A DNA stretch of 63,648 nt, filler included. It is 8 parts of 8 records of this genome, joined end to end, with 100 filler letters (N's around TTAATTAATTAA, not from the genome) between each part and the next. Parts side by side here need not be neighbours in the genome. Positions count along the whole stretch, not along the records: positions 31,023 to 43,199 come from SRR31156797_68654; 7 more parts are not named here. One strand, given 5' to 3'. A model generated the notes under the pieces. That model worked only from the letters and a program-made list of their open reading frames with translations, was not told the DNA's origin and ran no database searches. This document shows, one piece after another, positions 7,255 through 56,531 of the stretch (positions are counted from its first letter, which is position 1; each line of letters begins with the position of its first letter). The position numbers were made by a program, and so were the translations under genes.

Positions 7255-7354
7255 NNNNNNNNNNNNNNNNNNNNNNNNNNNNNNNNNNNNNNNNNNNNTT
7301 AATTAATTAANNNNNNNNNNNNNNNNNNNNNNNNNNNNNNNNNNNNNNNNNNNN
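7255..7354. other. Artificial contig linker
   Basis: 44 N + TTAATTAATTAA + 44 N. Confidence 0.98.
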
Positions 7355-14924: not shown

Positions 14925-15024
14925 NNNNNNNNNNNNNNNNNNNNNNNNNNNNNNNNNNNNNNNNNNNNTTAATTAATTAANNNNNNNNNNNNNNNNNNNN
15001 NNNNNNNNNNNNNNNNNNNNNNNN
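14925..15024. other. Artificial contig linker
   Basis: 44 N + TTAATTAATTAA + 44 N. Confidence 0.98.
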
Positions 15025-20067: not shown

Positions 20068-20167
20068 NNNNNNNNNNNNNNNNNNNNNNNNNNNNNNNNN
20101 NNNNNNNNNNNTTAATTAATTAANNNNNNNNNNNNNNNNNNNNNNNNNNNNNNNNNNNNNNNNNNNN
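20068..20167. other. Artificial contig linker
   Basis: 44 N + TTAATTAATTAA + 44 N. Confidence 0.98.
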
Positions 20168-29745: not shown

Positions 29746-30390
29746 GTGATATTGCCGGGCCAATATTACGATAGTGAGACTGGGTTGCATTACAACTGGC
29801 ATCGCTACTACGACCCGAACACTGGAAGATATATAAGCGCTGACCCAATAGGACTTCAAGGTAGAATGAATTTGTATGCTTATGTAGGTGGTAACCCAAT
29901 TAACAGAATCGATCCAATGGGACTTATGTATTATCCAGATGTGGTTGGTGATACAAATATTGGTTTCGCTCAAGATTACATTGATGGAAGTACTATCGGC
30001 GGCGGTGTCGGTGGTGGGGTGCATTTATGGGGAGCAGGTGTGTATGGACACCAGCATGTCCAATGTGGTGCTGGAGGGTGTTACTCAGTAACTACTGTCT
30101 GCGGAAGAATCGGACCAGGAATGTATATTGGTGGTGGGACTGAAGGCGCTGGAACCATAGGCCCACAATCAGATGATATTAATCAAGAATGCGAAGAGAA
30201 ATCTTGTACTGAAACTTGGTCAGTTGGGCTTGGTGGAGATATCGCTGTCGGTAACGAAGGTGGAGGTGTTTCCGGCGGGGTTGGGCCTTCTGGATTATCT
30301 GCTGGAGGAAGTTTCAGATCGCCTGTAAGTGCTGGGTTCGGAGCTTCTGCTGGTGTAGATGTATGTTATATCAAATCTTGTCCACTATAA
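29746..30390 (+). CDS. Orphan RHS cassette: core fragment plus Gly/Cys-rich alternative C-terminal tip
   Basis: [32 protein letters not shown] then 154 aa; 26 nt (29755-29780) identical to 28932-28957 of the main RHS gene. Confidence 0.85.
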
Positions 30391-30922: not shown

Positions 30923-31022
30923 NNNNNNNNNNNNNNNNNNNNNNNNNNNNNNNNNNNNNNNNNNNNTTAATTAATTAANNNNNNNNNNNNNNNNNNNNNN
31001 NNNNNNNNNNNNNNNNNNNNNN
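30923..31022. other. Artificial contig linker
   Basis: 44 N + TTAATTAATTAA + 44 N. Confidence 0.98.
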
Positions 31023-31187
31023 TCTTTCTGTTTTAACAACTCCCACCTGAATAAAAGCAGCCCGGCTGGGTATCATATTGAAAAATTCAGGCATAAAAAG
31101 ATAAGGAATAATTTCATGTCACCTTCCCCAAAGGCCCCAGGGAACCTGACGGTTTTGTTTCGATCTTTAAAATTTAAACAAACATGA

Positions 31188-32012
31188 TCAGTCAAACGAT
31201 CCTAGCCGGTTCAGGGCTTCACTGGCGGCGTTTCTAACGCGTTCATCATTATCGGCCAGACATCCGGTCAAAGCATGTATAACGTTATCACCACCCATTT
31301 TACAAAGAGCATCCACAGCGGTTTTGATGACAAGATCGTTGTCATCCTGTAGTGCATTGATCAAAGGAATCAGCGCCCTTTCATCGCCTGTTGCTGATAA
31401 TTTTTGAACCGCCCTGATTTTCTGGTGATCTTCTCCCGTGGTCACAAGCTGGTTCAGGTGAGGCAAATCGACCTTTTCCGTTGTTTCTGTTGTGGTTTCA
31501 ACCGACGCACTCAAACGCCCACTCCCCTGATTCAAAGTACGACCGGCCCCTTCCAAACGTTTATTTTCTCCCGTTCGCTTCATGGAAATATCGACAGATT
31601 CGGCAGGGCCCGCCAGCTTTTTACGGTTCGCATTCCGATCAAATGTTTCAAAGATCATAACTTCTTTGATTTTCGCCACATTTTCTTTTCTGGTGTCATA
31701 GATAAATACGGTACTGTAATCCCGGGTCAAACATCTCAATCCTTTTTCCAAAGGAAGGTTTGAAAATCGGGCACATGCCAGAGATTCGCCATTGGAATGC
31801 AGGAAAATCCGAATGGATGCCTGTTCGGCAATTTTACTCATCAGTTTTTTAAAAGGGTAATTCCGTATGTTCACGGAGAGCAAACCATCAGTTACCATGA
31901 CAAAGGAAGGAGATGGCTCTTTTCCCATCACGCCGCTTGCGGCATGGATCACCAAATCGGGAAAAAGAGTTACGCCCACGAAGAATAGAAGCAAACAGCC
32001 ATTTTTGGGCAT
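31188..32012 (-). CDS. Exported protein with STN/secretin-N-like domain and C-terminal HEAT repeats
   Basis: Signal peptide; LSVNIRNYPFKKLMSKIAEQASI..FSNLPLEKGL; HEAT repeats ALIPLINALQD..VRNAASEAL. Confidence 0.75.
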   Translation of the reverse strand: MPKNGCLLLFFVGVTLFPDLVIHAASGVMGKEPSPSFVMVTDGLLSVNIRNYPFKKLMSKIAEQASIRIFLHSNGESLACARFSNLPLEKGLRCLTRDYSTVFIYDTRKENVAKIKEVMIFETFDRNANRKKLAGPAESVDISMKRTGENKRLEGAGRTLNQGSGRLSASVETTTETTEKVDLPHLNQLVTTGEDHQKIRAVQKLSATGDERALIPLINALQDDNDLVIKTAVDALCKMGGDNVIHALTGCLADNDERVRNAASEALNRLGSFD

Positions 32013-32017
32013 TGCCT

Positions 32018-32848
32018 CTACCTCCCTCTTTCTTCTATTCCATCGCTGTCAGCAACTGCCCGGCCCATTGCCGCTTTTCCATGAAAGCCAATCTTATTTT
32101 CTTTCCCACCATTTCCCTTCGTGCTCCCTTTTTCCGGTTGGGATTTCTGATCCGTCCGGATATAACCAAGCAGGGGAATGAGAATCTCCTGCTTTTGCGG
32201 ATAATTCGTTTTCAGGGTAATTTTTCCACTGTACTTGGAGTCAGAGGGAGAGATATTCGTCAGAACAAGCCTGAAAAGCTTTCCGGGTTCAACGGTTTCA
32301 AGTTCATATGCCACTTTATCGGAAAGGGTATTCTCACTGGGCTCCAAAATCAGGGGAAGTTTTTCATGGGCTTTGATTGTTACAATCTTTTGAATAACTT
32401 CCCCGGGATGGCCGCTGAGCATGACCCCTCTTGGAAAAACAGTTATCGGAACTTGTACAAATGCACGTACTTCGATCCTGGTTGATTTTTTGTATTTATC
32501 ATTGGAATGAACAACCGCTGATTTTCGAATTTTTCCCTGAAATTGGGCTGTTTTGAGGGAAACAACTATCTGCCCCGCCCCACCGGGGAGGATGGCGCGG
32601 TCAAAATGCGCCACAGTGCACCCTCAAGAGGGTTTCACGCTGGTAATTTCAAGAAGGGCATCCCCTTTATTGAGCACCTGGAATGCATGTACGAGTTGCT
32701 CCCCGCCTTTGATCACCTTGAAATCATGGACCGGCTCCCTGATCTCCAGAACCGGCCCGGAAGCCCGGCCCTCAACTAAAAAGGGAAAAATGAGGCAAAC
32801 GATAAAAACAGCCGTGACCATCAGTTTTCTGTTGAAGTACTGATTCAT
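32018..32848 (-). CDS. DUF1573-domain exported protein with in-frame UGA (probable selenocysteine) at codon 75
   Basis: ORFs 32624-32848 and 32018-32614 are in the same frame and read LEITSVKPS-UGA-GCTVAHFDRAILPGG, where the family has C-G-C; hairpin directly downstream. Confidence 0.75.
32585..32623 (-). promoter_or_regulatory. Putative bacterial SECIS hairpin
   Basis: After UGA: GGGUGCACU-GUGGCGC-AUUUUGACC-GCGCCAU-CCUCCCC; 7-bp upper stem, loop starts 17 nt after the UGA. Confidence 0.55.
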
Positions 32849-32961
32849 AGCTATCAATTCCTTATAAAGGGAACGAACGCATCCTCCCCAGTTCAGAATC
32901 CATCTTCCATCAAGGCAGGACAGACTCTGAACCGGGGAAATAGAGTAGCAATTACCAGAAG

Positions 32962-33570
32962 CTAGTATTTCCTTCGTCTCAAAGACGCAAGCCCTATCAG
33001 GCCAGACCCCAAGAGCCATGCGGCACCGGGAAGCGGTACGTTATTTACTGATCCCAGATAGACACCACCCTCAAATTGGCCATCAAGGTTATCTCCAAGC
33101 AATGCTACAACGTCAGCGCTTACACCGCCCTTGTCCCTATCCCATAGAAAGAGATCATTTGGGCCTGGTCCGGTGCATTTCAATTCAACAGAAAAAAGCA
33201 AGAGATTGTCCCCCTCAACGCCAGTTCCAAAAAGAGGCAACCCTTCAATTTTCAGGTCTGGCGTCAACACGTCCTGTGATAAAACAAGCGGCCATAACTG
33301 CATATTACGGATGGCGCTCACTGCGGTCAAATTATCACCATAGTCGAGAGAAAAAGCCCATCCGGCAAGCCCATTACCTGCTTCGTTCAAACCTGAAACA
33401 TAAATATCGGCAAAAATACTATCGCCCGGATCCAGAAGGATTGTAGATCCGGTTTCATAGCTTCCATCCTGACCAAAATCGATATAAAAAGAAAGCGCAG
33501 GTGCAGAATTGGATACAGATGCAATTCCCATTACCAACAACAATGCAATCAAAGCAGATATTTTTTTCAT
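32962..33570 (-). CDS. VPLPA-CTERM (PEP-CTERM-like) sorting-domain protein with cohesin-like passenger
   Basis: AAGGAG RBS, signal peptide MKKISALIALLL.., C-terminus VPLPGAAWLLGSGLIGLASLRRRKY. Confidence 0.88.
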   Translation of the reverse strand: MKKISALIALLLVMGIASVSNSAPALSFYIDFGQDGSYETGSTILLDPGDSIFADIYVSGLNEAGNGLAGWAFSLDYGDNLTAVSAIRNMQLWPLVLSQDVLTPDLKIEGLPLFGTGVEGDNLLLFSVELKCTGPGPNDLFLWDRDKGGVSADVVALLGDNLDGQFEGGVYLGSVNNVPLPGAAWLLGSGLIGLASLRRRKY

Positions 33571-33612
33571 TTCTATATTCTCCTTACTTGTCTTATTTGT
33601 GTACACAATTCG

Positions 33613-34030
33613 TTAATTAATCTTGTTGAGACCCGAGCGTCCTCGGCGTAAAGCCCCGATTACTCCCGCCATCCCGGTTCCCAGGAGGAGTAATAATGAG
33701 GGAACCGGTGTAGACTTGAGTCTCAAATGCCATATCTTTTCCAGGGAGGGACGGACGTTCTTGCTGAAACATCCTGGTAAAAAGTAATATTGAATCCTTT
33801 CAAGATACCGGGGGGATTTAACAATGGGTCGCCCCATCCGTCGCTATGACGATAAGGATAGTAATTCCCCGGGCCGATTGTAGAGTCCCAGAAAGATCCC
33901 CACCAAATTATCCCGACTACAGGCTCTGCGGCGTTACCCAGAAAATCATCGGCAACCTGGGAAGACACCTGGTTTTCGAGGGAAATGCATTCCCGTTTCC
34001 TGGAACCATGCTGGGGTCTTATGCCCATGC
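33613..34030 (-). pseudogene. Degenerate PEP-CTERM-type protein gene
   Basis: Passenger fragment QVADDF..IIWWGSFW..GFNITFYQD in one frame; sorting tail TPVPSLLLLLGTGMAGVIGALRR in another. Confidence 0.55.
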
Positions 34031-34725
34031 CACACTGGATGCCTTGGCAACTCCGACAGGCAATGAAAGGATAAAAAGTAACAGGGTTTAAAGTTTTCCT
34101 TTCAATTCCGTTCCACCTTCTATTCTGTAATTTAGTAGAAACTCGGGTAAAGAATGTTAACCGTATTGTTCTTTGATAGGTATCACCTCCTTTAATAAAG
34201 CAATCGGGCTGTCTCGATTGGTTCACCCCGCAGAGGACGCAAGAAGCCAGTTGAAATTTATCCATTCTTCGCAAATAGTAATTTCATCGAATACGCCCCT
34301 GGCCTCAGCCAGAATCACCATTTATATGTATCTGACACTTGGTTTCCCAAATAAAGAATCATTGAAGATTCGCAATTTCGCTTGATTCGGATAATAACAG
34401 AATAGCAATCAAAACACGCTACGTTTATGCAAAATACAATCCGCTATCTTCTCGATAAACGACGTTTACCAAAGTTAACCAGCAGTCATAATGAAACAAA
34501 AGCTTTGCTCCATCTCTTGAACAAAATTTAGACGTTAAAGAGTTATTACCTTCTCAACCCATTACAATTTCATTTTTTACCCAATAGAGAAACAAATGTG
34601 ACGAATTCGGCGACAATAAAATAAGGAAAGATATGGAAGGGAGGCACCGCCCCGGAGCGCCGATATAATGCGGAGAAATCCCCTCGGTCAGGACCTGTCA
34701 AGGGGATTTTACAGAAGGGGTGTGG

Positions 34726-35241
34726 TCAGATCGCTCCCTCATCGACACCATGGAAAGTGAGGGAGATATTCCGCCGGTCAAGAAAGGCCTTGAACTCCCG
34801 GATAAAAACGCCCTGGCCGTTGACCAGCTTGAGATTGTCGATCTGGGGGGCGAGGGTCTCCATGGAGCTGATCTCACCGCCGTGGAACCCGGTGCAGGTC
34901 TGGTTGACGCCGCAGCTGGGACTGCCGTCCACCCCGATGACGCAGATGATCTCGTAACCTGCCCTATGGAACGCCTGGATCTCATCCAGGGAGGGTTCCA
35001 GTATCCTGCGGCAATGGTTCACATACCCGGGATTGTCGTACTGCTCCACGGTCATGCCCCAGCGGTTCATGCCAAGATAGGAGGTTTCGGGACAGGGCAG
35101 CTGGACGATTCCCGCCCCCTGCTTGAGGTAGGGAAGAATGACCTCCTCCTTGATGCCGGCATAATTGGCAAGGGGGTGGATCTTTGCGTTTGCGTTCAAA
35201 AGACAGTGGCACACGACGATGATCTGCCTGCTTCGTTTCAT
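34726..35241 (-). CDS. TudS/DUF523-related putative [4Fe-4S] desulfidase (CD3072-like)
   Basis: VCHCLLNAN, QLPCPE and GVDGSPSCG motifs. Confidence 0.8.
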   Translation of the reverse strand: MKRSRQIIVVCHCLLNANAKIHPLANYAGIKEEVILPYLKQGAGIVQLPCPETSYLGMNRWGMTVEQYDNPGYVNHCRRILEPSLDEIQAFHRAGYEIICVIGVDGSPSCGVNQTCTGFHGGEISSMETLAPQIDNLKLVNGQGVFIREFKAFLDRRNISLTFHGVDEGAI

Positions 35242-36086
35242 GGGGTTCTCCTTATTTCAATGGGGTTGGCCGGGCGGCGGGCTTGCAGGGATTGGAGCTG
35301 TTCCAGCAGTTGCGCCTCTTTCCAGGGGGTGGGGACAAGGCCCAGTTTCTCTCCGAGCTGCCACACCTGGGGAGGAACAATACCTCCCCGGGCCAGGAGG
35401 TCCGGACTTTGAAACAGCTGGTCACAGGGGCCGTCCATGACAAGGCGTCCCTTTTCCAGCACAATCATTCTCTCAAAAATATCGGCACAGAAGTCCATGT
35501 CGTGGGTGACGGCGACAACGGTTTTTCCCGCCTGTTTCAGTTCATGGATGACGGACGAGATCCGCTGCTTGCCCCCAAGGTCCTGGCCCATGGTGGGCTC
35601 GTCCAGGACCAGAAGATCGGTGTCCATGGCAAGCACCGAGGCAAGGCAAAGCATCTTTTTTTGGGCAAGGGAGAGATCCAGGGGATTGACCCGTTCCATG
35701 CCCCGGAGCCCCGTGGCGGCCATGGCGTTTTCCATAAGGGTGTTGATCCTGTGGGTGGGGTATCCAATATGCCTGGGGCCCCAGGCAATTTCTTGGGCCA
35801 CCGACCGGCAGAAGATCTGGTCGTCCGGGTTCTGGAACACGAATCCGGCCTTCCGGGAAAGGCCGGCCACGGAAACCTTGGTGATGTCGAGGCCCCAGGT
35901 CACCACCCTTCCCCGGTGGGGACGCAACAGGCCGTTCATGTGCTTTACCAGGGTGGTCTTACCGGCCCCGTTCCGGCCCAAGATGGCCACGGTCTCACCC
36001 GGCTGGATGGACAGGGTGACATCTTCGAGGGCGGTTTGTCCGGAGAAACTATGGGAAAGGGAGGTGATCTCAACCGAGGGGGGCAT
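35238..36086 (-). CDS. ECF transporter ATPase subunit
   Basis: GRNGAGKTT, FQNPDDQIF, LSLAQ, LDEPT, VTHD. Confidence 0.9.
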   Translation of the reverse strand: MPPSVEITSLSHSFSGQTALEDVTLSIQPGETVAILGRNGAGKTTLVKHMNGLLRPHRGRVVTWGLDITKVSVAGLSRKAGFVFQNPDDQIFCRSVAQEIAWGPRHIGYPTHRINTLMENAMAATGLRGMERVNPLDLSLAQKKMLCLASVLAMDTDLLVLDEPTMGQDLGGKQRISSVIHELKQAGKTVVAVTHDMDFCADIFERMIVLEKGRLVMDGPCDQLFQSPDLLARGGIVPPQVWQLGEKLGLVPTPWKEAQLLEQLQSLQARRPANPIEIRRTP

Positions 36087-36897
36087 TCAGAAATCCTTTT
36101 TCAACATTTTCGAGGGAGATGGGCAGGGTATCGCCGTGGAAGAGGCCCATGGCGCGGGCCTTTCTTGCAATGGTGGTGACCCTCGGCACCTCCACCCCGT
36201 GGCCGGGCATTTCCGGGGAAGTGAGGACGGCCTGGGGTGAACCTGTGGCGACGATTTTTCCCCGGGAAAGGACCACAACGGTGTCGGCCAGATCCGTAAG
36301 ATGAGCCATGGTCTGCACGGCCATGACAATGGTGACGCCCCGGCGGTTCACCTTTTTGATGAGCTGGAGAATCTCCCGGGTGCCGGCCGGATCGAGCTGG
36401 GACGTGGGGTCATCCAGGACAAGGAGTTCGGGCTCCATGACCAGGATGGAGGCAAGGGCGACCCGCTGGGCCTGGCCCCCGGACAGGGTGGAGGGGTCCC
36501 TGTCCTTGATATCCGTGATGTCCACCAGGGCCATCACCTCGTCGATCCTTGCTTCCATGGTCCGGCGGTCGATGCCCAGGTTCTCCATGCCAAAGGCCAG
36601 CTCCTCGGCCACAGTGAACTTTGCGCCGGAGAACTGGTTGAAGGGATTGTCAAACACAAAGCCGGGCCTTGTGCGATCCTGGCCGGAGCAAATCCTTACC
36701 CGGCCGGTCAAGTCACCGCCGAACACCCGGAGAATCAGGCCGGCGATCACACGGCAGAGGGTGCTTCTGCCGGCGCCGTCACTGCCCATGATCACCGTGA
36801 ATTCGCCCTGGCCGATCCTGAGATCAATACCGTCAAGGGCGGGGTTCTCCCCCAGGGGGTAGGTGTAGGAGAGGTTCTCTATCTCAAGGAAAGCCAT
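36070..36897 (-). CDS. ECF transporter ATPase subunit with degenerate catalytic motifs
   Basis: Start MAFLEIENLSYTY at 36897; GSDGAGRST, LSGGQ, LDDPT, AVQ. Confidence 0.85.
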   Translation of the reverse strand: MAFLEIENLSYTYPLGENPALDGIDLRIGQGEFTVIMGSDGAGRSTLCRVIAGLILRVFGGDLTGRVRICSGQDRTRPGFVFDNPFNQFSGAKFTVAEELAFGMENLGIDRRTMEARIDEVMALVDITDIKDRDPSTLSGGQAQRVALASILVMEPELLVLDDPTSQLDPAGTREILQLIKKVNRRGVTIVMAVQTMAHLTDLADTVVVLSRGKIVATGSPQAVLTSPEMPGHGVEVPRVTTIARKARAMGLFHGDTLPISLENVEKGFLNAPLG

Positions 36898-37676
36898 AAC
36901 CGCCCTCCTGCCGCCGCTGCAACCATCACCCCACAGATCCTGCGAACCAGGGGTTCCGCCCTGCCCTCTTGCTGAAGGATGAACCGACTCCTGGCGCCGG
37001 CTGTGTTGAACGCCCTGACATCGAGGGCTGCGGCCCGCATCTCCGCATCCGCCAGGGTGGCGTAGAGAAGGGGGATCAACAAGGGAAAAAGGGCCCTGAT
37101 CCGGACCCGGAGGCTCCCTTGGGTTTCGAGGCCCCTGGAGCGCTGGGCATCTAGGATGGACGCGGCCCGCTGCCTCAGCCGGGGAATGAGGGTCAAGGCG
37201 GCAAGAATCATGTAACAAAGATAGGGATGGACCCCGTTATGGGCCAGATCTTCCATGAGCCGGGACGGTGGGGTGGTCATAAGGAGGAGTGCCAGGGAAG
37301 ACACCATCACGAGGACCCGGGTGCCGATCGCCCATGCCGTCAGGAGGCCGTCACCATTGACCGGAACGGAAAGGAAGAGACTCTCACTGCCGGGTGGAGC
37401 GGGCATGAGAAATCCGTAGATGCCGGACAGGAACAGGAGAAAGGGCGCCATGCCCTTCAACAGGAACAGGCAAAGGTCGTTCAAGACCTTTGCCAATGCC
37501 GCCATGGGAACCACAAGGCAGAGAAAAATGCAGGAGGGCGCAGCCGGCCCCGGCAGAAGGAATGCCAGGGCGATGGGGGTGGCTGCGCCCACAAGCTTGG
37601 TAAAGGGAGTGACCCGGTCGTGGAGAAGGCTTCTCCTTGACCGGTACAACGGCTGAACCGGAGACGCTGCCATCAA
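36879..37676 (-). CDS. ECF transporter T component (EcfT/CbiQ family)
   Basis: TM helices; ILDAQRSRG and LDVRAF coupling motifs. Confidence 0.88.
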   Translation of the reverse strand: MMAASPVQPLYRSRRSLLHDRVTPFTKLVGAATPIALAFLLPGPAAPSCIFLCLVVPMAALAKVLNDLCLFLLKGMAPFLLFLSGIYGFLMPAPPGSESLFLSVPVNGDGLLTAWAIGTRVLVMVSSLALLLMTTPPSRLMEDLAHNGVHPYLCYMILAALTLIPRLRQRAASILDAQRSRGLETQGSLRVRIRALFPLLIPLLYATLADAEMRAAALDVRAFNTAGARSRFILQQEGRAEPLVRRICGVMVAAAAGGRLWLSLR

Positions 37677-38248
37677 CGGGCGATCCTGGCGGCCATGGGA
37701 AACTTTGCAAGATAGCGTTGGGACATGCCCCGCACCACGGCAAAGGCGATCAACACTGTGGGGATCTTGTCCACCGGCTCCACCATGAGGTTCTTGTAAA
37801 AGGCGGCCGAACTGATCTTGACACCGGATTTAACGAGGATGGCCGTGATGAGTGAAGCGCCGCTGCCCTCGACACCGCCGTAGACATAGACCACGATGGG
37901 GGTGGCGACAAAAGGGGTGGTGACGGCCACTACGAGGCCCGCGATACAGGCCTTCCACCAGGTGGATAAAAGACCGTACCGGGCGCACAAGCCCGCCACC
38001 AGTCCGATCCAGGCCGCCACAGGGATAAAGGGAAGGGCCGAGGGAGAAAAAAGCCCCCACACCAGGTTGGAAAGGGCCCCGGTGAGGGCCCCGGCCCAGG
38101 GGCCGCAGGTGATGGCCACAAGGACCGTCCCCATGCAGTCCATGTACACGGGAAGCTTCAGCACACTGACCAGCTGGCCGACGGCGATGTTAAGGGCGAT
38201 GGCCACCGGAATCAACGCGATCGTTATCAGGCCGAACTCTTTTTTCAT
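37673..38248 (-). CDS. ECF transporter S component (CD3073-like)
   Basis: AAGGAG RBS; IALIPVAIALNIAVG..LKLPVYMDCMGT..GPWAGALTG. Confidence 0.85.
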   Translation of the reverse strand: MKKEFGLITIALIPVAIALNIAVGQLVSVLKLPVYMDCMGTVLVAITCGPWAGALTGALSNLVWGLFSPSALPFIPVAAWIGLVAGLCARYGLLSTWWKACIAGLVVAVTTPFVATPIVVYVYGGVEGSGASLITAILVKSGVKISSAAFYKNLMVEPVDKIPTVLIAFAVVRGMSQRYLAKFPMAARIAR

Positions 38249-38394
38249 GGCTTCATCTCCTTTATCTGTTGAGGATGCTGTCAAAAAAGTAATTGAGTCC
38301 TATCGAAATCATCACCAACGGTCAAAACGATAATTCCGATGCACTTTTGAAACTTTATTGAGCGTCTCTATTCAACGGATCAGGAGAGAGGGGC

Positions 38395-38979
38395 TCACTT
38401 CTCCGGGATGCCCCCTTGGGTGAACCTGGCAAGATAGCGGGTGGACATCCGCTTTACCGCGGCAAAGGCGATCATTGCGGCCAAGGCCTTGTCAGCCGCC
38501 TCCACCAGCAGGTTCTGGGCGAATGACTGGGAGGCCATGCCGGCAAGGGAGGTTGACAGGATCTCCCGGATCAGGGCAACGCCCGTGGCATTGATATTGC
38601 CGTAGACATAGGCGGCAATGGGTACGTTGAAAAAGGGGATGGTGAGGCCCACCAGGAGGCCTGCCATGGCAGCCCGGTACCAGGTTCTCAACCCGTTGCG
38701 GCGGGCCATGAGCCCAAAGGCGAATCCCAGCCACGCGGCCACGGGAATAAACTGGCCGGCATAGGGGGAGAACATGCCCCAGACAAGGGTGGAGACGATC
38801 CCGGTAAGGGCGCCGGCCCAGGGCCCACAAAGCAGGGCAACCAGGATGGTGCCGATGGAATCCAGGTAAACGGGCAGGCCCAGGAAAGCAGCGGCCTGTC
38901 CGGCGGCAATATTGACAACCAGGGCAACCGGGATCAACGCGATTGCAACGGCGGTGAAATTTTCTTTAATTGTGTCCAT
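38395..38979 (-). CDS. Second, paralogous ECF transporter S component
   Basis: IALIPVALVVNIAAG..LPVYLDSIGT..GPWAGALTG; same ..MSxRYLAxF end as the neighbour. Confidence 0.85.
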   Translation of the reverse strand: MDTIKENFTAVAIALIPVALVVNIAAGQAAAFLGLPVYLDSIGTILVALLCGPWAGALTGIVSTLVWGMFSPYAGQFIPVAAWLGFAFGLMARRNGLRTWYRAAMAGLLVGLTIPFFNVPIAAYVYGNINATGVALIREILSTSLAGMASQSFAQNLLVEAADKALAAMIAFAAVKRMSTRYLARFTQGGIPEK

Positions 38980-39123
38980 ACTCTTCTCTTGCTCCTATAT
39001 AACGGTTATACGGAGCAGAAGAGTAACGGGAAGCTGGGTTTGCGTCAACAGGATTTCCGGCAAATCCGACTGAAACATTTAAATTGCGTTAAAAAATTCA
39101 TGAACCGATCCAATGAACCGGCC

Positions 39124-39543
39124 TTAGGCGACGCTTGGATAAACAGAGACCAGGCGGTCTCCCAGCATCCCTGCGACCCTCTTGAAAAAAAGCGCCTCGC
39201 TCTCGGGAACCTTTGCAAGCTCCGCAAGAAAACTATCTTTCCCAACCTTTACCATCTTTGTCGGTTCGACACAGGTTGCCGTGGCCGAATAGAGATCCCT
39301 GCCGAGCAGGGTGGACCAGCCAATCACCTGGCCGGGCTCCTTTGCAATGTAGACGGTGGGTCCCTCGTCTCCGATGGAGAGTTTGATCCGCCCTTTGATC
39401 AGGATATAAAAATAATCTGCGGATTCTCCTGTCTCAAAGAGGACAGCCCCCTCGTCAAAATCTTTTTTCTCAGTTTCATCCATGACCTGTTTAACAAAAT
39501 TACTATCCATACCCCAGAAAAGGTCTCCCTGTTTTAATTGCAT
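39124..39543 (-). CDS. Stand-alone cyclic nucleotide-binding (CAP_ED) domain protein
   Basis: LFETGESADYFYILIKGRIKL..PGQVIGWSTLL..YSATA; no HTH. Confidence 0.85.
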   Translation of the reverse strand: MQLKQGDLFWGMDSNFVKQVMDETEKKDFDEGAVLFETGESADYFYILIKGRIKLSIGDEGPTVYIAKEPGQVIGWSTLLGRDLYSATATCVEPTKMVKVGKDSFLAELAKVPESEALFFKRVAGMLGDRLVSVYPSVA

Positions 39544-39872
39544 GATATCCCCCTTCTCAGTCTGGATCTGCCGGATGGTGAAAACGCTCTATGAGATTGA
39601 AAGGCAAGAATGGAGGGCTTGAACACGTCTGACTTGATTGCGCCTCCTTGGATTTCATTATAGAGAATCGACTTTTTATGTCAAGTGATAATAGCGTGTT
39701 CGCAATGGACCGTGGGCTTCGCGAATCCGCCCATCTTCCCGGGTACCCGCAAAAAAGACTTGCAAAAAATGGTGAATCAACGGAAACATAGGAGGTTCGA
39801 TAACATGGTAACATGGCAAAGATTAAATATTGTACGACACCCAAAACCCTTTAGCACATAAAGAAATCAAAG

Positions 39873-42542
39873 ATGAAACAACAGATATACCTTATAGATG
39901 GGAGCGCCTACCTATACCGCGCTTTCCACGCCATCCGAAGCCTGTCCACATCAGCGGGAATCCCCACCAATGCGACCTTTGGCTTTACCCGGATCATCCT
40001 GAAACTGATCAAGGAGAAACAGCCCGAGAATGTGGCCGTATTCTTTGATGTCAAAGGCCCCACCTTCCGCCACGACATGTACGAAGAATACAAGGCCAAC
40101 CGGCCGCCCATGCCGGAGGAGCTGGGCCAGCAGATCCCCTACATCAAGGAGGTGGTCAAGGCCCTCAACATCCCCATCGTGGAAAAAACGGGGTTTGAGG
40201 CGGACGACCTCATCGGCACCTATGCCCGGATTGCGGAGGAGAAGGGGTTTGAGGTGGTCATGGTGACCGGAGACAAGGATTTCATGCAGCTTGTCACGGA
40301 CAATGCCGTAATCTGGGACCCCATGAAGGAGGAGGTGATCGACAAGGACGCGGTTTTCAATAAACTCGGCCTCACCCCGATCCAGGTGATCGACATGCTG
40401 GGCCTTGCCGGAGACACCGCCGACAACATCCCGGGCGTTCCCGGGGTCGGGCCCAAGACGGCCCAGAAGCTCCTCGCCGAGCACGGAAACGTGGAGGGGA
40501 TCTACGAAAACCTTGAATCCCTCCGCTCAAAAAAAGCCCTCTACGCAAAACTGTCCGACAACCGGGAACAGGCGTTCCTGAGCCGGGATCTTGTGGCCAT
40601 TGACAGGAACGTTGAAGTGGACACCTCCCTGGAGGAGTTCAAGATCTCCCCCTTTGACGATGAGCGCCTGGCGGAAATCTTCAAGGAGCTCGAGTTCACC
40701 AAGCTCTACCAGGAGTTCAGGAAAAAACAGGAACCCGTGGAAAAAGAATATGTCCTGGTGACGGAGATGGACAAGCTGAAAGCCCTTGTAAAAGACCTTG
40801 AAAAGGCGGGCATCTTCAGCATCGACACCGAGACCACCTCAAAGCACCCCATGCACGCAAAACTTGTGGGCATCTCGGTGGCGTACAAGGAACACCAGGC
40901 GTTTTACATTCCCGTGGGCCACACCAGCTGTCCGGACCAGCCCGATTGCGCGGAGGTGCTTGAAACAATGAAGCCCCTCCTGACAAACCCGGAGATCAAA
41001 AAGATAGGCCAGAACATCAAATACGACTACATCGTATTGGCAAGGCACGGCGTTGAGATGCAGGGGCTCTGGTTCGACACCATGATCGCCTCCCACCTGC
41101 TGAATCCCGCCCAGCGGGGCCACAGCCTGGATAAAATCGCCATGGATCTTCTGGACCACAAGACCATCAAGTACGAAGACGTAACCGGCAAGGGAAAGGC
41201 CCAGATCGGGTTTGAAGCGGTGGAGATGGACAAGGCCCTGGACTATGCGGCAGAGGATGCCGACATCACCTTCCTGTGCTACACCATCCTGGAAAAACGG
41301 CTTGAAGAAGCCGAGCTTCTCTCCCTGATGAACGATGTTGAGATGCCCCTTGTACGGGTGCTTGCGACCATGGAGATGAACGGGATCAAGGTGGATACCG
41401 ACGAGCTGATCGCCCTGTCAAAGGAGTTCGATCAGGAGCTCAGCACCCTTGAGACCGATATCCATGCCCTGGCGGGAGAGGAGTTCAACATCAACTCCTC
41501 AAAGCAGCTCGGCACCATCCTGTTTGAGAAACTGCTGCTGCCGGTAAAGAAAAAAACCAAGAAAAAGACAGGGTACTCCACGGATGTGGAGGTGCTCACC
41601 CAGCTTGCGGAGCACCATGAGCTGCCGGAAAAGGTATTGCGGTACAGGTCCGTCGGAAAGCTCAAGTCCACCTATTCAGACGCCCTCCAGGAGCTTGTCC
41701 ACCCGGAGACAGGCAGAATCCACACCTCCTTCAACCAGGCGATCACCGCCACGGGAAGACTATCCAGCTCAGATCCCAACCTCCAGAACATCCCCATCAG
41801 AACGGAAGAGGGAAAACGGATCAGGGAGACGTTTGTACCCAGGGAAGGACATACCCTGATTGCGGCGGACTACTCCCAGATCGAGCTGAGGCTCCTTGCC
41901 CACCTGGCCGACGACGAAATTCTTATCGAGGCATTCAACAATGACGAGGATATCCATACAAGAACCGCCGAAGAGGTGTTCCAGGCACTCCCGGGATTCA
42001 TCACCCCGGATCTGCGGCGCCAGGCAAAGGCCATCAACTTCGGCATCGTGTACGGCATGGGCGCCTTCAAGCTTGCCAAAGACCTGGACATCTCAAGAAA
42101 GATGGCGCAGACCTATATCGACTCCTACTTTGCACGGTATGCTGGGGTAAAAAAGTTCATTGACACGACCATCGAGAAGGCAAGGGAGACCGGAGAGGTG
42201 ACCACCCTGCTGGGAAGGAAGCGGCGGTTGAACGATATCAACGCATCCAACGGAAACCTGAGGAAATTTGCGGAGCGGGCCGCCACGAACACACCGGTCC
42301 AGGGCAGTGCCGCCGACCTGATCAAACTTGCCATGATCAACATGGACAGGCTCCTGACCGAGAAGAAGCTCAAGTCAAAGATGCTCCTCTCCGTCCATGA
42401 CGAGATCATATTTGAGACCCCCCTGGAAGAGAAGGAGGAGATCATGGCCCTTGCCAAGGCAAGCATGGAGAGCGTGTTTGACCTGAAGGTCCCACTGAAG
42501 GTTAACATCGACGCTGGTGACAACTGGGCCGAAGCCCATTAG
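39873..42542 (+). CDS. polA: DNA polymerase I
   Basis: YLIDGSAYLYRAFHA 5'-3' exonuclease, DTETT 3'-5' exonuclease, ADYSQIELR, KAINFGIVYG, VHDE. Confidence 0.98.
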   Translation: MKQQIYLIDGSAYLYRAFHAIRSLSTSAGIPTNATFGFTRIILKLIKEKQPENVAVFFDVKGPTFRHDMYEEYKANRPPMPEELGQQIPYIKEVVKALNIPIVEKTGFEADDLIGTYARIAEEKGFEVVMVTGDKDFMQLVTDNAVIWDPMKEEVIDKDAVFNKLGLTPIQVIDMLGLAGDTADNIPGVPGVGPKTAQKLLAEHGNVEGIYENLESLRSKKALYAKLSDNREQAFLSRDLVAIDRNVEVDTSLEEFKISPFDDERLAEIFKELEFTKLYQEFRKKQEPVEKEYVLVTEMDKLKALVKDLEKAGIFSIDTETTSKHPMHAKLVGISVAYKEHQAFYIPVGHTSCPDQPDCAEVLETMKPLLTNPEIKKIGQNIKYDYIVLARHGVEMQGLWFDTMIASHLLNPAQRGHSLDKIAMDLLDHKTIKYEDVTGKGKAQIGFEAVEMDKALDYAAEDADITFLCYTILEKRLEEAELLSLMNDVEMPLVRVLATMEMNGIKVDTDELIALSKEFDQELSTLETDIHALAGEEFNINSSKQLGTILFEKLLLPVKKKTKKKTGYSTDVEVLTQLAEHHELPEKVLRYRSVGKLKSTYSDALQELVHPETGRIHTSFNQAITATGRLSSSDPNLQNIPIRTEEGKRIRETFVPREGHTLIAADYSQIELRLLAHLADDEILIEAFNNDEDIHTRTAEEVFQALPGFITPDLRRQAKAINFGIVYGMGAFKLAKDLDISRKMAQTYIDSYFARYAGVKKFIDTTIEKARETGEVTTLLGRKRRLNDINASNGNLRKFAERAATNTPVQGSAADLIKLAMINMDRLLTEKKLKSKMLLSVHDEIIFETPLEEKEEIMALAKASMESVFDLKVPLKVNIDAGDNWAEAH

Positions 42543-42549
42543 CGGCCGG

Positions 42550-42723
42550 TTACTCTTCCTTGGCCGAGGCTTTTTCCACGCTGTTTTGGACCGTCTCTGA
42601 AATGGTTGCGTGTACATCCCTGAAGGATTCATGCACGCTTGCAGGAGAAAGCCTCCCCATCTCAATAAACTTCACCACTATCTCTTTAGTCGCCCGTAGT
42701 ATTTGTTCATCCATTGATTTCAT
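42550..42723 (-). CDS. Small conserved hypothetical protein
   Basis: MDEQILRATKEIVVKFIEMGRLSP, recalled as a small-protein type seen in Desulfobacterota. Confidence 0.65.
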   Translation of the reverse strand: MKSMDEQILRATKEIVVKFIEMGRLSPASVHESFRDVHATISETVQNSVEKASAKEE

Positions 42724-42863
42724 GGGTGAGGAGATATCACACAAGGGTTGACAAGGTCAATGGCTGTCCATTATTTTGTTGCCATGTTTATTAAGATGAT
42801 TATTATATTCGGATTCTTGCTAAACCAACCAATAACCCCTAACGTCGTAAGGACAAATCCTGC

Positions 42864-43199
42864 ATGGATACAATAGAAGCCACAAATTCCGAGGTGATCG
42901 ACCACATCTCCTGCAACGGAAAAGAGATAACTTTAATCAGCACGGCCCATGTCTCCAAGGAGAGTGCCAAGCTTGTCACCGATGTGATCGAGAGCGAACG
43001 CCCGGATACGGTATGCGTGGAACTCTGCCCGACCCGGCTTCGCTCCATCAGGAACAAGGAAGAGTGGCGCAACATGGACATCGTCAAGGTGATCCGGGAG
43101 AAAAAGGCCCTGCTGCTGCTCATGAACCTCATGCTTGCCTCGTTCCAGAAACGGATCGCAACCAAGTTCGATATCAAACCGGGCCAGGAAATGATCAAT
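42864..43199 (+). CDS. TraB/GumN (PrgY) family protein, 3'-truncated
   Basis: LISTAHVSKES..PDTVCVELC..KPGQEM. Confidence 0.85.
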
Positions 43200-43299
43200 N
43201 NNNNNNNNNNNNNNNNNNNNNNNNNNNNNNNNNNNNNNNNNNNTTAATTAATTAANNNNNNNNNNNNNNNNNNNNNNNNNNNNNNNNNNNNNNNNNNNN
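43200..43299. other. Artificial contig linker
   Basis: 44 N + TTAATTAATTAA + 44 N. Confidence 0.98.
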
Positions 43300-43301
43300 C
43301 A

Positions 43302-46300
43302 ATTACCTATTCAGTTGGGGGTGGAGGAAGTGGTGCCGGTGTTAGCGGACTTCCTGCCGGGCTAAGTGCTTTTTATTCAGGTGGTACGTATACCATTAGT
43401 GGTACTCCAACCGAATACGGAATTTTTAACTATACAGTTACAACTACCGGTAACCTTTGTACTCCGGCAACAGCTAACGGACAAATCGAGGTTGGCACAC
43501 AAATAACACATTCTGCATCAGTTACTGTTCCTATCGATTGTTATGGTTCAACAGCCACCGTTGAAATAAGTGCTGCCGGAGGTATTGGAGCGCATTCTTT
43601 TACTTTTAACGGAGAAACAAATTCTACCGGAATATTTACCGGAGTATATGCCGGAACCAATCTTCAGTATGAAATAACTGATGGCAATAGTTGTGGCCCT
43701 GTTTACGGTACCATTACCGTTGATGATGCTCCGGTTTTAAGCGCAACAACCACGGCAAGCCAAATGCTTTGTAACGGAGGTACGCCTAGCGGAGAGATTG
43801 AGGTTTCGAACCCGGTTGGAGGAAGCGGAGACTATGAAGTTTCTGTTGATGGCAGTAACTGGTATTCTGTTTCTACTGCTTCGCCTTATTCCTTCACCGG
43901 ACTGGCTGCCGGAAACTATTTTGTTGAAATCCGTGATCCAAATGCCAGCGGAACCTGTGTTGTTTCCTTGTCGGGCGTAAGCATTACCGAACCACCTGTT
44001 TTAAATACCGGAATAACCGCCACAGCTATTTTATGTTATAACGGAACTTCTGACGTTCAGATTAGTGCTTCAGGCGGAACGCCCGGGTATACCTACACTT
44101 TTGATGGTAGCCCCGATCCGGGAAACGACGGATTGCTTACAACTACTGCCGGAGTTTACCAATGGAAAGTGACCGATAGTAACGGTTGTGCCGATAGTAG
44201 TACGATTAGCATTACACAACCTACAGAGATAGCGGATTTAACCTTAAGCCCTGATACCGCAGTCTGCGAGGGGGGTACGGTTAATTTGCGTGCCTCAACA
44301 AGTGGAGGTACGGCACCCTTAACTTACAATTGGACCGGACCAAATGGTTATGCTGCAAATAATACACAAAATCCGGTTATACCTAATTTTAGTGACATAG
44401 GCGATTATGTCGTTACAGTGCTCGATGACAATGGTTGTAGTATAAGGGATTCGGTTGAGGTTATTATCAATCCATCACCGGATGTTATTGTTGTTAATAA
44501 TAATTCGGAATTCTGTTCAGGTGGAGATACCGATATTCAACTTTCAAGTTCTGTAACAGGTACTACCTTTACCTGGACGATTGATAGTACTGGTGTTTCC
44601 GGAGCTGTCGTATCAGCTACACCCTCAAATACAATAAGTCAGACTTTAACTGCTACCGGCGATGAACCGGGAACAGTTACTTATACTATAACACCAAGGG
44701 CAAACGGATGTGATGGAGAATCAGAAGAGGTTATAGTTACGGTTAACCCTGAAGTTGAACTAACAGTTACAAATAATGTGCCTGTAATTTGTACGAATGG
44801 ATATTGGGATTTCGTAGGAGGATGGGGTGGTGGTTGGGTTTGGATTGTTACTGGAACATCTGCAGATGTAAATATCAACCTGAACAGCAATGTTGCAGGA
44901 ACAACATTTCATTGGGACTACGCTGATGGAACTACTGGTTCAGGAAATAGCATTACGGAATACATTGAGAGTACTCACATTTACACTATATATGCAGAAG
45001 CTAATGGATGTTATAGTGATACATTTGAAACAAGGGTTGAAGTAATAGAAGAAAATATTGATTTGGAGGTTCATATTTCGGGCTCTTATGATACAACTTT
45101 TTGCCCTGGTGGGAACTTTTTAGTTAATTTTTACGGTGGTGAGTCGGGTAGTTGGAGTGATGGATGGGGGAGTTTTGTGACGTATTATGAATGGGAAACA
45201 AAGTTTCTATATACGGTAAGTAATCCGAATATTGTAGTTTCAGTTGATACTGATTCAATTGACGATGGAACTTCAGGTTCTCCAGCTAGCCTAAATATTC
45301 CATTAATTAACACTACCAATGAAGTCCAAACAGCGATAGTTAGTATTGTCCCATGGGCGTATTTAAGGAGTCAAGAGTGTAGGCGGTCCGGTGGATGGGG
45401 AGGATCTTGGAATTGCGGTGATTGGACGGAATGGGAAAAACTTTGTGCCGGTAATCCTTATGAAATTGAAATAACTGTTCAGCCATATACTCTTGTTTGT
45501 GGAGATGATACAACAATTTATTCGCCTGTTGACGATTGTGAAGCAAATTTCTTTAAAGACAATACTTATGATTTAGTAACCACATGTGCTTCTTCTGCTA
45601 CAACCATTAATTGGGATTTAGCTGGTGCTACCTCAACGGGTTCAACCCAGAGTGGAGATATCAATACGGATTTTAACTTCGGACAAACCACTATATCTCT
45701 AACCTCAAACGATCCCAATAATTCAGGAGATTCAATAAGAACCTGCTCTTTCGACGTAACAGTGCTCGATACGGTAAGCCCAACCATTAATTGCCCGGCC
45801 GGCGATACTACCATTTACGCAACAGCCGGTCTTTGTGGTGCTAATTATAATTTCGATCATATTCAAGCCAATGATAATTGCTCGGTGAATAGTTTTAGTC
45901 AAATCCAGGGACCGGGAAGCGGAACACTTTTCCCCATAGGAACAACTACTTTAAGTTTTTATGCCGATGATGCCGCCGGAAATAGCACCACATGTAGTTA
46001 CGATGTAATTGTTCTCGATACCATTTCGCCAACAATAACCTGCATTGGCGATACTACGGTTTGTGCCGAAGCAGGTATGGATTATACCAATGTGGGCGCA
46101 GGATGGGATGCAAGTGTCTCGGATAACTGCACAGGCGAAACAGTTGCCTATGTGGTTGATGGAACTCCTGTTGGATCTACCTTAAACAACGTGGTATTTA
46201 GTTTAACTGGTTCGCCTCATACGGTTGTGGCAACTGCTACCGATGCCAATACAAATACAAGCTCGTGTCAATTCCAGGTTACAGTTAACGAAAAACCTGC

Positions 46301-49013
46301 TATTACAAGTAATCCCGTTGGAGGAGATGTTTGTTTTGGAGCATCGCATACTTTTACCGCTGCTGCCAGCGGAACACCTGCCCCCACATTTCAATGGCGA
46401 AAAGATGGTGCAAACTTAAGCGATGATACCAATCATTCGGGATCGGCAACTGCATCGTTAACAATTGTAAATCTTGATGCTTCGCACATTGGCGACTACG
46501 ATGTGGTAGTAAGCAACGATTGTGGTTCTTCCACTTCTTTACCTGCAGCATTAAGTGTTTCAACCGAGCCTTATATTACACAACAACCGGTTAATCAAAG
46601 CAATTGTACGGGCGAAGATGTAATATTCTCTGTTGTGGCCAGTGGTGGTGTTACCACTTCCGACTATACCTATCAATGGGAAATTTGGAATTCGGGAAAC
46701 AGCGATTGGGATGTAACGGGAACCAATAGTAATACCTTATCAGTTACCAATATTGCTACTGTTGATAACGGAAACCAATATCGCGTTCGAATTGAAGATG
46801 ATTGCGGGAACCGCGATACCTCCGGTGTGGCAACATTAACCGTAAACGAAATGGATAATTCTGCCGGAATGGTTACGGTTAGTTTATGCGAAGGCGAATC
46901 AACAACATTTACAGCAGCTACTGCAGGTTCAACACCCGACTCATATGAATGGCAAAAAGACGGGGTTGTTATCAGCGGCGAAACAGCGCAAACCCTGGTG
47001 TTAAGCAATGTTACACTGGCAGATAGCGGAGTATATGCTGCCAGTGCCATTTTTACCATAAATGCAGGATCGACCTGCCAAACCGATACCGTAAATGTTG
47101 GGCGACTAATTATGGACGATGGGCCTGAGATTGTTGCATCTCCTGCTGCTCAGGAAGTGTGTTCCGATGCCTCTTTTTCCATCAACCTGTCAAATACTGA
47201 AGATCCTGGCAATCTAAATACTACTTACACATGGACACGTTCAAATAATCCTGAGCTTTCGGGAATGTTATTAAGCGGTAGTGGCGAAACTATTTCGGGG
47301 ACATTTACAAGCAGTGATCCTTCGGGCATGTATACTATTGAGTTTTATGTTACCGCAACAGCCAATGGTTGCGAATCGCTCGATACCGTAACTGTAAGTG
47401 TTGGCGATACCCTTGCTCCGGTAATAAGTAGTGTTTGTCCGGCAGATATTTCAATATCAACCAGTCTTTCCAATTGTAATTCTGTAGTAACTTATGTTAC
47501 TCCTGTTTATAGTGACAACTGTGATTCAGGAGTATTACCCGGAACCTTGGTTGAAGGGTATGCATCGGGGGCAACTTTCCCCTTTGGTCTTACTACCGTA
47601 AAATATATTTATGAAGATGCTGCCGGAAATGTTTCCGACACTTGTTCATTTACGGTTACTATCAACGATAATATTGCTCCAAATCCGGCATGTGCCGATA
47701 TAAGTGTTCAGCTGGATGAGTTTGGCCTGGCCGGAATTTTGGTTTCAGATATCGATAACGGATCTTCTGATGCTTGTGGAATTGACACCATGTTCCTGGA
47801 CAGTACCAGCTTTGATTGTTCAGAAATTGGTGCAAACACGGTCACCCTTACTGTCCGCGATTTATATGGAAACGATTCAACTTGTACCGCAACCGTTACT
47901 GTTGCCGATACGGTAAAACCGGAAGCCCTGTGCCAAAATACGACCTTATATATTAATGCAGGAGGTACTGCCTCAATTACAAGCGCTGACATTGATGATG
48001 GCAGTTCCGATGCCTGTGGTATTGCGTCATTAACTCTTTCAGAAACGAATTTTGATTGCACAAATATTGGTTCAAATACGGTTACACTAACAGTTACTGA
48101 TAATAATTCCAATGTTGAAACTTGCCAGAGTGTAGTAGCAGTATTGGATACTACCGGGCCACAAGTCAACTGTAACGATATTACGGTCTATTTAGATGCT
48201 TCCGGAAGTGCAAATATTACTGCGGCTGATATTGATAATAGCAGCTCAGATATTTGTGGATTAGATACCATGTTGCTTGATATTTATTCGTTTTCGTGCA
48301 GCAACCTTGGGGATAATACCGTGGAACTTACCGTTGAAGATGCCAACAGTAATTCGGCAGTTTGTTCAGCTAGTGTTGAAGTGCTGGATACCATATCTCC
48401 GATAGCATCCTGTAAGGATACAACCATACAACTCGATGCTTCCGGGAATGCCACGATTACAGCTAACCAATTGGATGCCGGAAGCTCCGACAACTGCGGA
48501 ATAGCTTCAATCGTAATTGATTCAACTGATTTTGATTGCACAGAATTGGGGGTTAATACGGTAACATTAACAGTTACGGATAACCAGGGTAATAGCTCAA
48601 CTTGTACATCTTTGGTAACGATTGCCGACGATGATAATGAAGTGGATATTACGGTGAGCGATGTGTCGCATTCCACAATTGATTGTTTTGGAGATTCGGC
48701 TACGGTTACCATAACAAGCTCAGGAGGCGTTGGTACTTTAATTTATACTTTGGGCACCTTCTCAAATAATACAGGTGTTTTCAATAATATCCCGGCACAA
48801 AATGGCTATGCATGGACTGTTTCTGATGCATTAGCTTGCAGTTCTCAGTCGGGAACAATTGATGTGGTGCAACCGGGAGAACTTACGGCAAACATTGCCT
48901 TAACCGATGTTACCTGCTCTTCGGGTAACGATGGTATCATTACTGTAATTGGTTCTTCCGGTGGATCAGGTGATTATGAATATCAGTTGTTAAGTACTGT
49001 AGAAAACCGTACA
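43302..49013 (+). CDS. Fragment (open at both ends) of a giant Bacteroidota-type surface adhesin with SprB, PKD-like, HYR and Ig repeats
   Basis: One frame spans the whole contig; SprB-like C.G..G.I..SGG..Y.Y; HYR DT.SP.I.CP..GT.FP.GTT; Ig TFQWRKDG; tandem LDASG.A.I..IDNGSSD.CG repeats. Confidence 0.9.
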
Positions 49014-49113
49014 NNNNNNNNNNNNNNNNNNNNNNNNNNNNNNNNNNNNNNNNNNNNTTAATTAATTAANNNNNNNNNNNNNNNNNNNNNNNNNNNNNNN
49101 NNNNNNNNNNNNN
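49014..49113. other. Artificial contig linker
   Basis: 44 N + TTAATTAATTAA + 44 N. Confidence 0.98.
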
Positions 49114-56431: not shown

Positions 56432-56531
56432 NNNNNNNNNNNNNNNNNNNNNNNNNNNNNNNNNNNNNNNNNNNNTTAATTAATTAANNNNNNNNNNNNN
56501 NNNNNNNNNNNNNNNNNNNNNNNNNNNNNNN
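56432..56531. other. Artificial contig linker
   Basis: 44 N + TTAATTAATTAA + 44 N. Confidence 0.98.

Follow-up and report, generated by a model that had tools for sequence, protein, structure and literature searches.

The window analysed here, a stretch of 63,648 nucleotides of DNA, contains on its minus strand a gene for a protein of 276 residues that is very probably a genuine selenoprotein gene, as judged from sequence comparison. In the reading that best explains the data, to which we assign a probability of about 0.87, this is a DUF1573 / OS_HP2 selenoprotein gene in a Desulfobacteraceae bacterium. Under this reading, the UGA at codon 75 would be translated as selenocysteine (Sec), the hairpin at 32614..32592 would recruit SelB carrying Sec-tRNA(Sec) by the standard bacterial mechanism, and the product would begin with a signal or anchor segment, followed by two Ig-like beta-sandwich domains and, at the C-terminus, a disordered tail. 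Outside the cytoplasm, the U75/C77 selenol/thiol pair might cycle through a selenenylsulfide in thiol/sulfur redox exchange, a redox reading of the U-G-C site to which we give even odds. The features discussed below are the following.

32018..32848, minus strand: probable selenoprotein gene, with ATG at 32848, Sec-UGA at codon 75 and TAG at 32020..32018; 276 residues
32765..32848, minus strand: basic and hydrophobic N-terminus (residues 1-28), candidate signal peptide or membrane anchor
32456..32746, minus strand: DUF1573 / HYDIN-VesB-like Ig domain (residues 35-131), carrying U75-G76-C77
32624..32626, minus strand: in-frame TGA, probably read as Sec (U75), first position of the U-G-C motif
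32592..32614, minus strand: hairpin 1, probable bacterial SECIS, with a 7-bp stem (GUGGCGC/GCGCCAU) and a 9-nt loop, AUUUUGACC
32570..32590, minus strand: hairpin 2 over the P-G-G-A-G codons (CUCCCCG / GUGGGG / CGGGG.AG)
32144..32452, minus strand: second Ig-like beta-sandwich domain (residues 133-235), from the predicted model, pLDDT above 90
32021..32143, minus strand: C-terminal tail (residues 236-276), of low complexity, pLDDT 43-68, unmatched in relatives
31188..32012, minus strand: HEAT-repeat gene, 5 nt past the selenoprotein stop; product exported-looking, with C-terminal HEAT repeats
32962..33606, minus strand: gene for a VPLPA-CTERM (PEP-CTERM type) sorting-signal protein, upstream
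7255-7354, 14925-15024, 20068-20167, 30923-31022, 43200-43299, 49014-49113 and 56432-56531: artificial spacers

Translation of 32848..32018 with TGA taken as U yields the 276 residues with one recoded codon only, and an AAGGA lies ~8 nt 5' of the ATG. The Sec codon is embedded in the context ...EITSVKPS-U-GCTVAHFDRAILPGGAG..., that is, the motif VKPS-U-GCTVA. The initial annotation had aligned the TGA with the first Cys in the motif of DUF1573, with the frame going on for about 200 aa beyond it, and had anticipated that gene callers would split the gene in two. All of this holds: 15 of the 17 protein-database homologues carry Cys at the aligned column, 201 further codons run from the TGA to the TAG stop, and in the standard ORF list two pieces take the place of the gene, one of 131 aa at 32624..33019 and one of 198 aa at 32018..32614. 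A scan of the window for TGA-bridged frames detects no second selenoprotein gene and otherwise returns only gene-boundary artefacts.

The kind of protein is already known, down to the motif, as far as the published listings go. OS_HP2 has been reported as a new selenoprotein family from the symbionts of Olavius algarvensis (Zhang & Gladyshev, NAR 2007, PMC1976440, Table 2), the GOS analysis lists it as 'pfam07610 UxC' (PLoS Genet 2008, PMC2398784), and reviews of 2022 and 2026 (PMC9312934, PMC13188914) list DUF1573, PF07610, with the motif UGC; DUF1573 / OS_HP2 with UGC has been in print since 2007. The window protein displays what these entries catalogue for DUF1573 selenoproteins, namely a PF07610 match above the gathering score and U-G-C at the position of the C-G-C motif. 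Its sole match in NCBIfam is NF041425 'OS_HP2 family (seleno)protein', with 95.6 bits (E 1.8e-27, Sec read as Cys), which misses the cut-off of 100 by 4.4; by the rule of the model, the protein is not a called member, although the homology is unambiguous. With this model, the relatives score 112.5 (L134), 100.3 (L145), 120-136 (L135-L144) and 111.4 (P0002), and the more distant Cys forms score 73.7-103.5. The identity of the window protein to anything found is 53% or less, and this copy is apparently a new, somewhat divergent, accessory two-domain member of a curated family. General knowledge of selenoproteins is unchanged by this gene.

The window was put together from separate contigs, with seven 100-nt artificial spacers (44 N + TTAATTAATTAA + 44 N) at the joins, and gene neighbourhood is therefore meaningful inside one contig only; the ends of spacer-crossing ORFs (e.g. 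43764..49061) are artefacts. The contig with the selenoprotein gene extends over 31023..43199 of the window and also carries polA (39873..42542). Compared with the PolA of four Desulfobacteraceae/Desulfobacterium metagenome-assembled genomes (G001-G004), the encoded PolA shows 96, 91, 90 and 79% identity, and accordingly, the source is taken to be a Desulfobacteraceae bacterium. In all four of these nearest genomes, selA, selB, selD and tRNA-Sec score over the curated cut-offs, and selD itself contains an in-frame TGA; by extension from these relatives, the organism from which the window comes would be expected to possess the Sec machinery. A tRNA scan of the window finds no tRNA. The selD gene of the genome with 79% PolA identity (G003:C1:300806-301728) is broken, besides its Sec TGA, into four pieces in different frames, which look like long-read assembly indel errors or a broken gene. 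Other contigs of the window encode large RHS/teneurin-like YD-repeat proteins, of which one includes a pretoxin-HINT domain, as well as an RHS-associated core fragment that stands apart (3-6089, 25770-29423 and 29746-30390, all on the plus strand).

Comparison with relatives indicates that the TGA is a stable character of this branch of the family. Of the two homologues in the protein database that lack Cys at the aligned column, P0002, although the closest of all (47% identity), has Ile, and P0003 begins just past the motif, as expected of a fragment cut at a TGA. Among metagenome contigs, scanned with a 4-row alignment and two peptide patterns that leave out the Sec codon, TGA occupies the aligned codon in each of the 80 best relatives (37-53% identity). 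The closest copies in 401 genomes of the order are L134 (42% identity), L145 and L135-L144, with TGA in all 11 loci examined; these are 11 of the 12 closest loci retrieved, the twelfth, L140, having been dropped for an N gap, with TGA there too. Two of these closest copies, L134 and L145, have the two-domain architecture, and L135-L144 are three-domain proteins of ~340 residues. The initial annotation had named TGA versus Cys codons in homologues as the comparison to make at this position, and had regarded a TGA unique to one assembly, or TAA or TAG in homologues, as evidence against Sec. The TGA recurs in 80 of 80 metagenome relatives, Cys occupies the column in 15 of 17 database homologues, and neither TAA nor TAG is found there among the homologues examined.

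A more distant, core OS_HP2 gene (motif K-V-[KE]-T-G-U-G-C-T-A-V) is present in each of the four nearest genomes. NF041425 matches 190 of the 201 sampled genomes of the order, 180 of these over the cut-off, which makes OS_HP2 near-universal in the sampled Desulfobacterales. A TGA is present in 132 of the 150 NF041425 matches listed and absent from the other 18. The core-gene loci examined number 34 (L083-L086, L088-L117), and 33 of these have the Sec form, with TGA at the motif; the single exception, L108, has the Cys form only. At L099 (G106:C57, ~798-860 and 1618-1680), Sec-form and Cys-form OS_HP2 genes stand in tandem, and in the motif P-P-G-G-E-G the Cys copy has GAA in place of the GAG of all Sec forms, with the loss of one pair of hairpin 2. 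The non-Sec genome copies comprise 20 Cys forms and one Ser form. Neither Sec nor Cys occupies the first motif position in P0002 (Ile-G-C) and in the Ser form, L123 (G107:C178, Ser-G-C), which still folds a hairpin of -4.8 kcal/mol; given these Ile and Ser variants, the first motif residue is, on the alignment, dispensable in some members.

The RNA downstream of the UGA can be folded into two hairpins. Hairpin 1 is separated from the UGA by 9 nt and has a folding energy of -11.1 kcal/mol in a 27-nt frame, and the stem-loop that had been proposed from the sequence at the outset is indeed located at SECIS distance. Hairpin 2 may be stacked on hairpin 1 or may be, in part, a by-product of the CCN/GGN codons. 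Taken alone, the window hairpin is modestly unusual and only weakly significant: the 91-nt fold has z = -1.60, with 12 of 200 dinucleotide shuffles equally stable, and among 3000 synonymous recodings, the fraction that is as stable amounts to 3.0% for hairpin 1, 2.8% for hairpin 2 and 7.6% for the whole 63 nt. What gives the hairpin its evidential weight is its distribution among relatives. When all are folded in this 27-nt frame, 31 of the 33 Sec forms reach an energy of -6 kcal/mol or below, compared with 3 of the 21 non-Sec forms (20 Cys, 1 Ser), with median energies of -7.7 and -0.1, respectively (Mann-Whitney p = 1.8e-8, which is indicative only because the sequences are related). The presence of the hairpin in TGA forms and its absence from most Cys forms provide a reusable signal for the DUF1573 / OS_HP2 family.

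The pairing itself is conserved. The helix columns pair in 86.4% of the cells in an alignment of 28 sequences (A2) and in 89.3% in an alignment of 72 sequences (A5), the second structure tested being the fold of the window itself, which somewhat favours its pairing score; shifting the partner by 1-3 columns lowers pairing to 31-55%. Changes on both sides are seen in 3 of the 7 pairs of hairpin 1 in the smaller alignment and in 4 of the 7 in the larger one. The stems of the core family vary with the pairs kept (CUGUCUC/GAGACAG, UGUUUCG/CGAAACA, GCCGC/GCGGC), and in the subfamily to which the window gene belongs, the stem is GUGGCCC/GGGCCAU, with a compensatory G-C in the window where the others have C-G. 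A search of the window against Rfam at gathering thresholds yields no family, and the Rfam SECIS families give no match over 32450-32700 at E up to 10, where the search returns two chance-level matches to unrelated families. Bacterial SECIS elements typically have a G in the loop, which is missing from the apical loop in many relatives.

The predicted fold of the protein runs across the TGA. Pfam DUF1573 (PF07610) matches residues 35-131, with the TGA inside the match, at E 3.4e-20 and 72.3 bits, compared with a gathering score of 26.1. The AlphaFold2 model built from a 28-row alignment has a mean pLDDT of 86.4 and consists of two beta-sandwich domains (~31-132 and 133-235, both with pLDDT above 90) followed by the disordered tail (236-276), and the halves that flank the TGA form one confident domain. 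In the first domain of this model, U75 occupies a strand-loop-strand junction, between the strands 66-73 and 77-82. The top Foldseek matches are HYDIN/ASH-type Ig domains and 2qsv from Porphyromonas gingivalis (E 1.7e-9); a sequence search of the PDB produces nothing meaningful, with the best E at 0.94. The N-terminus, MNQYFNRKLMVTAVFIVCLIFPFLVEG-RASGP, is basic at first and then hydrophobic, with a modelled helix at residues 3-24 and a possible V-E-G/R cleavage site read by eye, and the relatives have clearer signal peptides of the A-x-A type. From this N-terminus and the signal peptides of the relatives, we infer that the window protein is exported.

Gene neighbourhoods offer some leads to function. 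The HEAT-repeat protein encoded next downstream of the selenoprotein gene combines a hydrophobic N-terminus, a conserved domain of ~90 residues (residues ~38-125) without a Pfam match, and the C-terminal HEAT repeats. At L150 (2541-3488), a homologue of this protein follows a DUF1573 Sec gene (35% identity over 272 residues, E 2e-48); at L148, the ORF that comes next after the gene, considered as another counterpart, was rejected because it is not a homologue. Downstream of the core OS_HP2 genes, 23 of 27 loci have a HAD hydrolase gene, and upstream lie PriA or PabB-type genes, neighbourhoods in which no lead to function is apparent, and for the three-domain forms the next gene downstream encodes a formyltransferase in 6 of 9 loci. 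The flanks of 54 metagenome loci (122 ORFs; non-duplicate loci up to L218) include RNase H (12), rhodanese (7), Rex-like repressor (6), MauE/DoxX (3), DsbD_TM (1) and HEAT (1), and at the genomic loci of 11 relatives MauE, DsbD_TM, CcmF and Metal_resist are found once each, the redox-type neighbours being MauE/DoxX at L141 and DsbD_TM at L145. In several relatives among the metagenome loci (L159, L173, L187, L170, L190 and L196), the DUF1573 Sec gene is followed by a gene for a rhodanese-domain protein and then, in three of them, by one for a MauE/DoxX membrane protein; these genes may form an operon.

Neighbours of the rhodanese, MauE/DoxX and DsbD types incline the interpretation towards thiol/sulfur redox chemistry outside the cytoplasm, but the neighbourhoods are heterogeneous (RNase H, Rex-like, formyltransferase, HAD hydrolase), and this makes the redox inference weak. 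A more specific proposal, which we regard as a long shot, is that the two-domain copy in the window and its closest relatives represent a separate accessory extracytoplasmic selenoprotein module, in which the U-G-C protein would act with a co-transcribed exported HEAT-repeat protein or, elsewhere, with rhodanese and a MauE/DoxX or DsbD-type membrane protein, in a selenium-based sulfur/thiol relay. If true, this would be a function undescribed for the DUF1573 / OS_HP2 family. Both sets of neighbours, the rhodanese/MauE/DsbD types and the conserved HEAT-repeat partner, offer leads that can be tested.

In the main alternative chemistry, the exported Ig-like protein would use its U-G-C pair to bind a soft metal or metalloid (Cu(I), Hg, Cd, As). 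Soft metals are bound well by vicinal Cys/Sec pairs, and two loci fit this alternative: the relative at L138 is followed by a Metal_resist (PF13801) gene, and at L196 a cation-efflux gene is located two genes downstream. Such metal-related neighbours are, however, rare among the 54 metagenome and 11 genomic loci scanned, and the contig 31023-43199 carries no metal-handling gene, the ECF/CbiQ transporter genes at 35238-38979 being generic. On balance, a metal site seems doubtful, and redox exchange is the preferred, if uncertain, chemistry.

The setting of the gene in its genome bears on the question of whether it is functional at all. DNA synteny with G001, G002 and G004 (85-92% identity) extends from polA back to approximately position 34,680 of the window and then breaks. 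The remaining 3.65 kb (31023-34680), which include the HEAT-repeat gene, the selenoprotein gene, the VPLPA-CTERM gene and a DUF7901 gene, have no DNA match in the four nearest genomes, of which G001 is uninformative at this place since its contig stops 112 nt beyond the synteny break; at the protein level, these four genomes encode no close orthologue of the window selenoprotein (identity 33% or less). The segment looks like an accessory cell-surface gene island. In such a setting, the gene could be a decaying accessory copy, in which a Cys codon (TGC or TGT) has mutated to TGA and only a 74-residue fragment is made. The lack of a DNA match to the segment in the nearest genomes, the score just under the NCBIfam cut-off, and the absence of the third domain of many relatives, with an unmatched disordered tail, are all compatible with decay. 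Nevertheless, a pseudogene is very improbable, given that the TGA is ancestral to the whole branch (80 of the 80 best metagenome loci and 11 of the 12 closest genomic loci), that the 201 codons after it are intact and encode a confidently predicted fold, that the subfamily-specific hairpin is retained with a compensatory G-C pair, and that two-domain Sec forms are known elsewhere (L134, L145).

Even less credible is the presence of two genes, one for a small exported peptide that ends at the TGA and the other for a second protein that starts at GTG 32614. This arrangement matches the standard ORF list, and the P0003 entry in the database starts right past the motif, but a single Pfam domain and a single predicted beta-sandwich bridge the TGA, the second piece would have neither a signal peptide nor half of its domain, and the Cys-form homologues are single proteins. 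A gene that NF041425 misses by 4.4 bits and that ORF callers split exemplifies the copies that stay hidden as fragments.

The letters of the codon themselves appear secure. A search of sequencing runs finds the sequence in one sample only, the probable source, with no RNA run among the holders, and a second run of the same sample contains next to none of the sequence words. Over 31900-33000, the sequence agrees letter for letter with a 20.9-kb Logan contig, assembled independently from the probable source sample and with a word depth of ~93, so that an assembly error is unlikely; the TGC or TGT that would have told against a Sec codon is not seen in this second assembly, which has the same letters in its contigs. 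Although the sequence comes from a single sample and the comparison is at the contig level, the chance that the TGA is a sequencing or assembly error is negligible, with the second assembler's contig identical, ~93x word depth, no variant listed, and TGA at this codon in all close relatives.

The textbook mechanism to which the proposed recoding corresponds is that of the Escherichia coli fdhF SECIS and SelB. The SelB/SECIS recoding mechanism is summarised in the introduction of PMC1976440. As in fdhF, the stem-loop of the window gene is directly 3' of the UGA and within the coding sequence, but it differs from the fdhF SECIS in having no sequence similarity to it, no Rfam SECIS match and other loop features. 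The Cys-form DUF1573 proteins (e.g. P0004-P0018 and PDB 2qsv) share the fold of the window protein but have the C-G-C motif, with Cys for Sec, and the downstream hairpin is mostly absent where the DNA was examined.

The closest parallels are within the OS_HP2 family. With the OS_HP2 selenoproteins, so far as their published description extends, the window protein shares the Pfam domain, the U-G-C column, a hairpin right after the UGA, a signal-like N-terminus and a Desulfobacterota host, but the register and arm sequences of its hairpin are its own, and a HEAT-repeat gene lies next to it in place of the usual neighbours. The core Desulfobacterales OS_HP2 gene (L083-L086, and in most of 201 genomes) has in common with it the two Ig-like domains, the length of ~250 residues, the Sec column and the place of the hairpin; the two proteins are, however, only ~30-33% identical, and the core stem, CUGUCUC/GAGACAG, is in a register 1-5 nt off from that of the window. 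The three-domain Sec subfamily (L135-L144, L150; ~340 residues), with the motif K-P-G-U-G-C-S-V-A-R-F-D-R-T-I-P-P-G-G-E-G, resembles the window gene in its 35-53% identity, the same hairpin register and the outer stem GUGG/CCAU, and differs from it in a third Ig-like domain, in place of which the window protein has its disordered tail.
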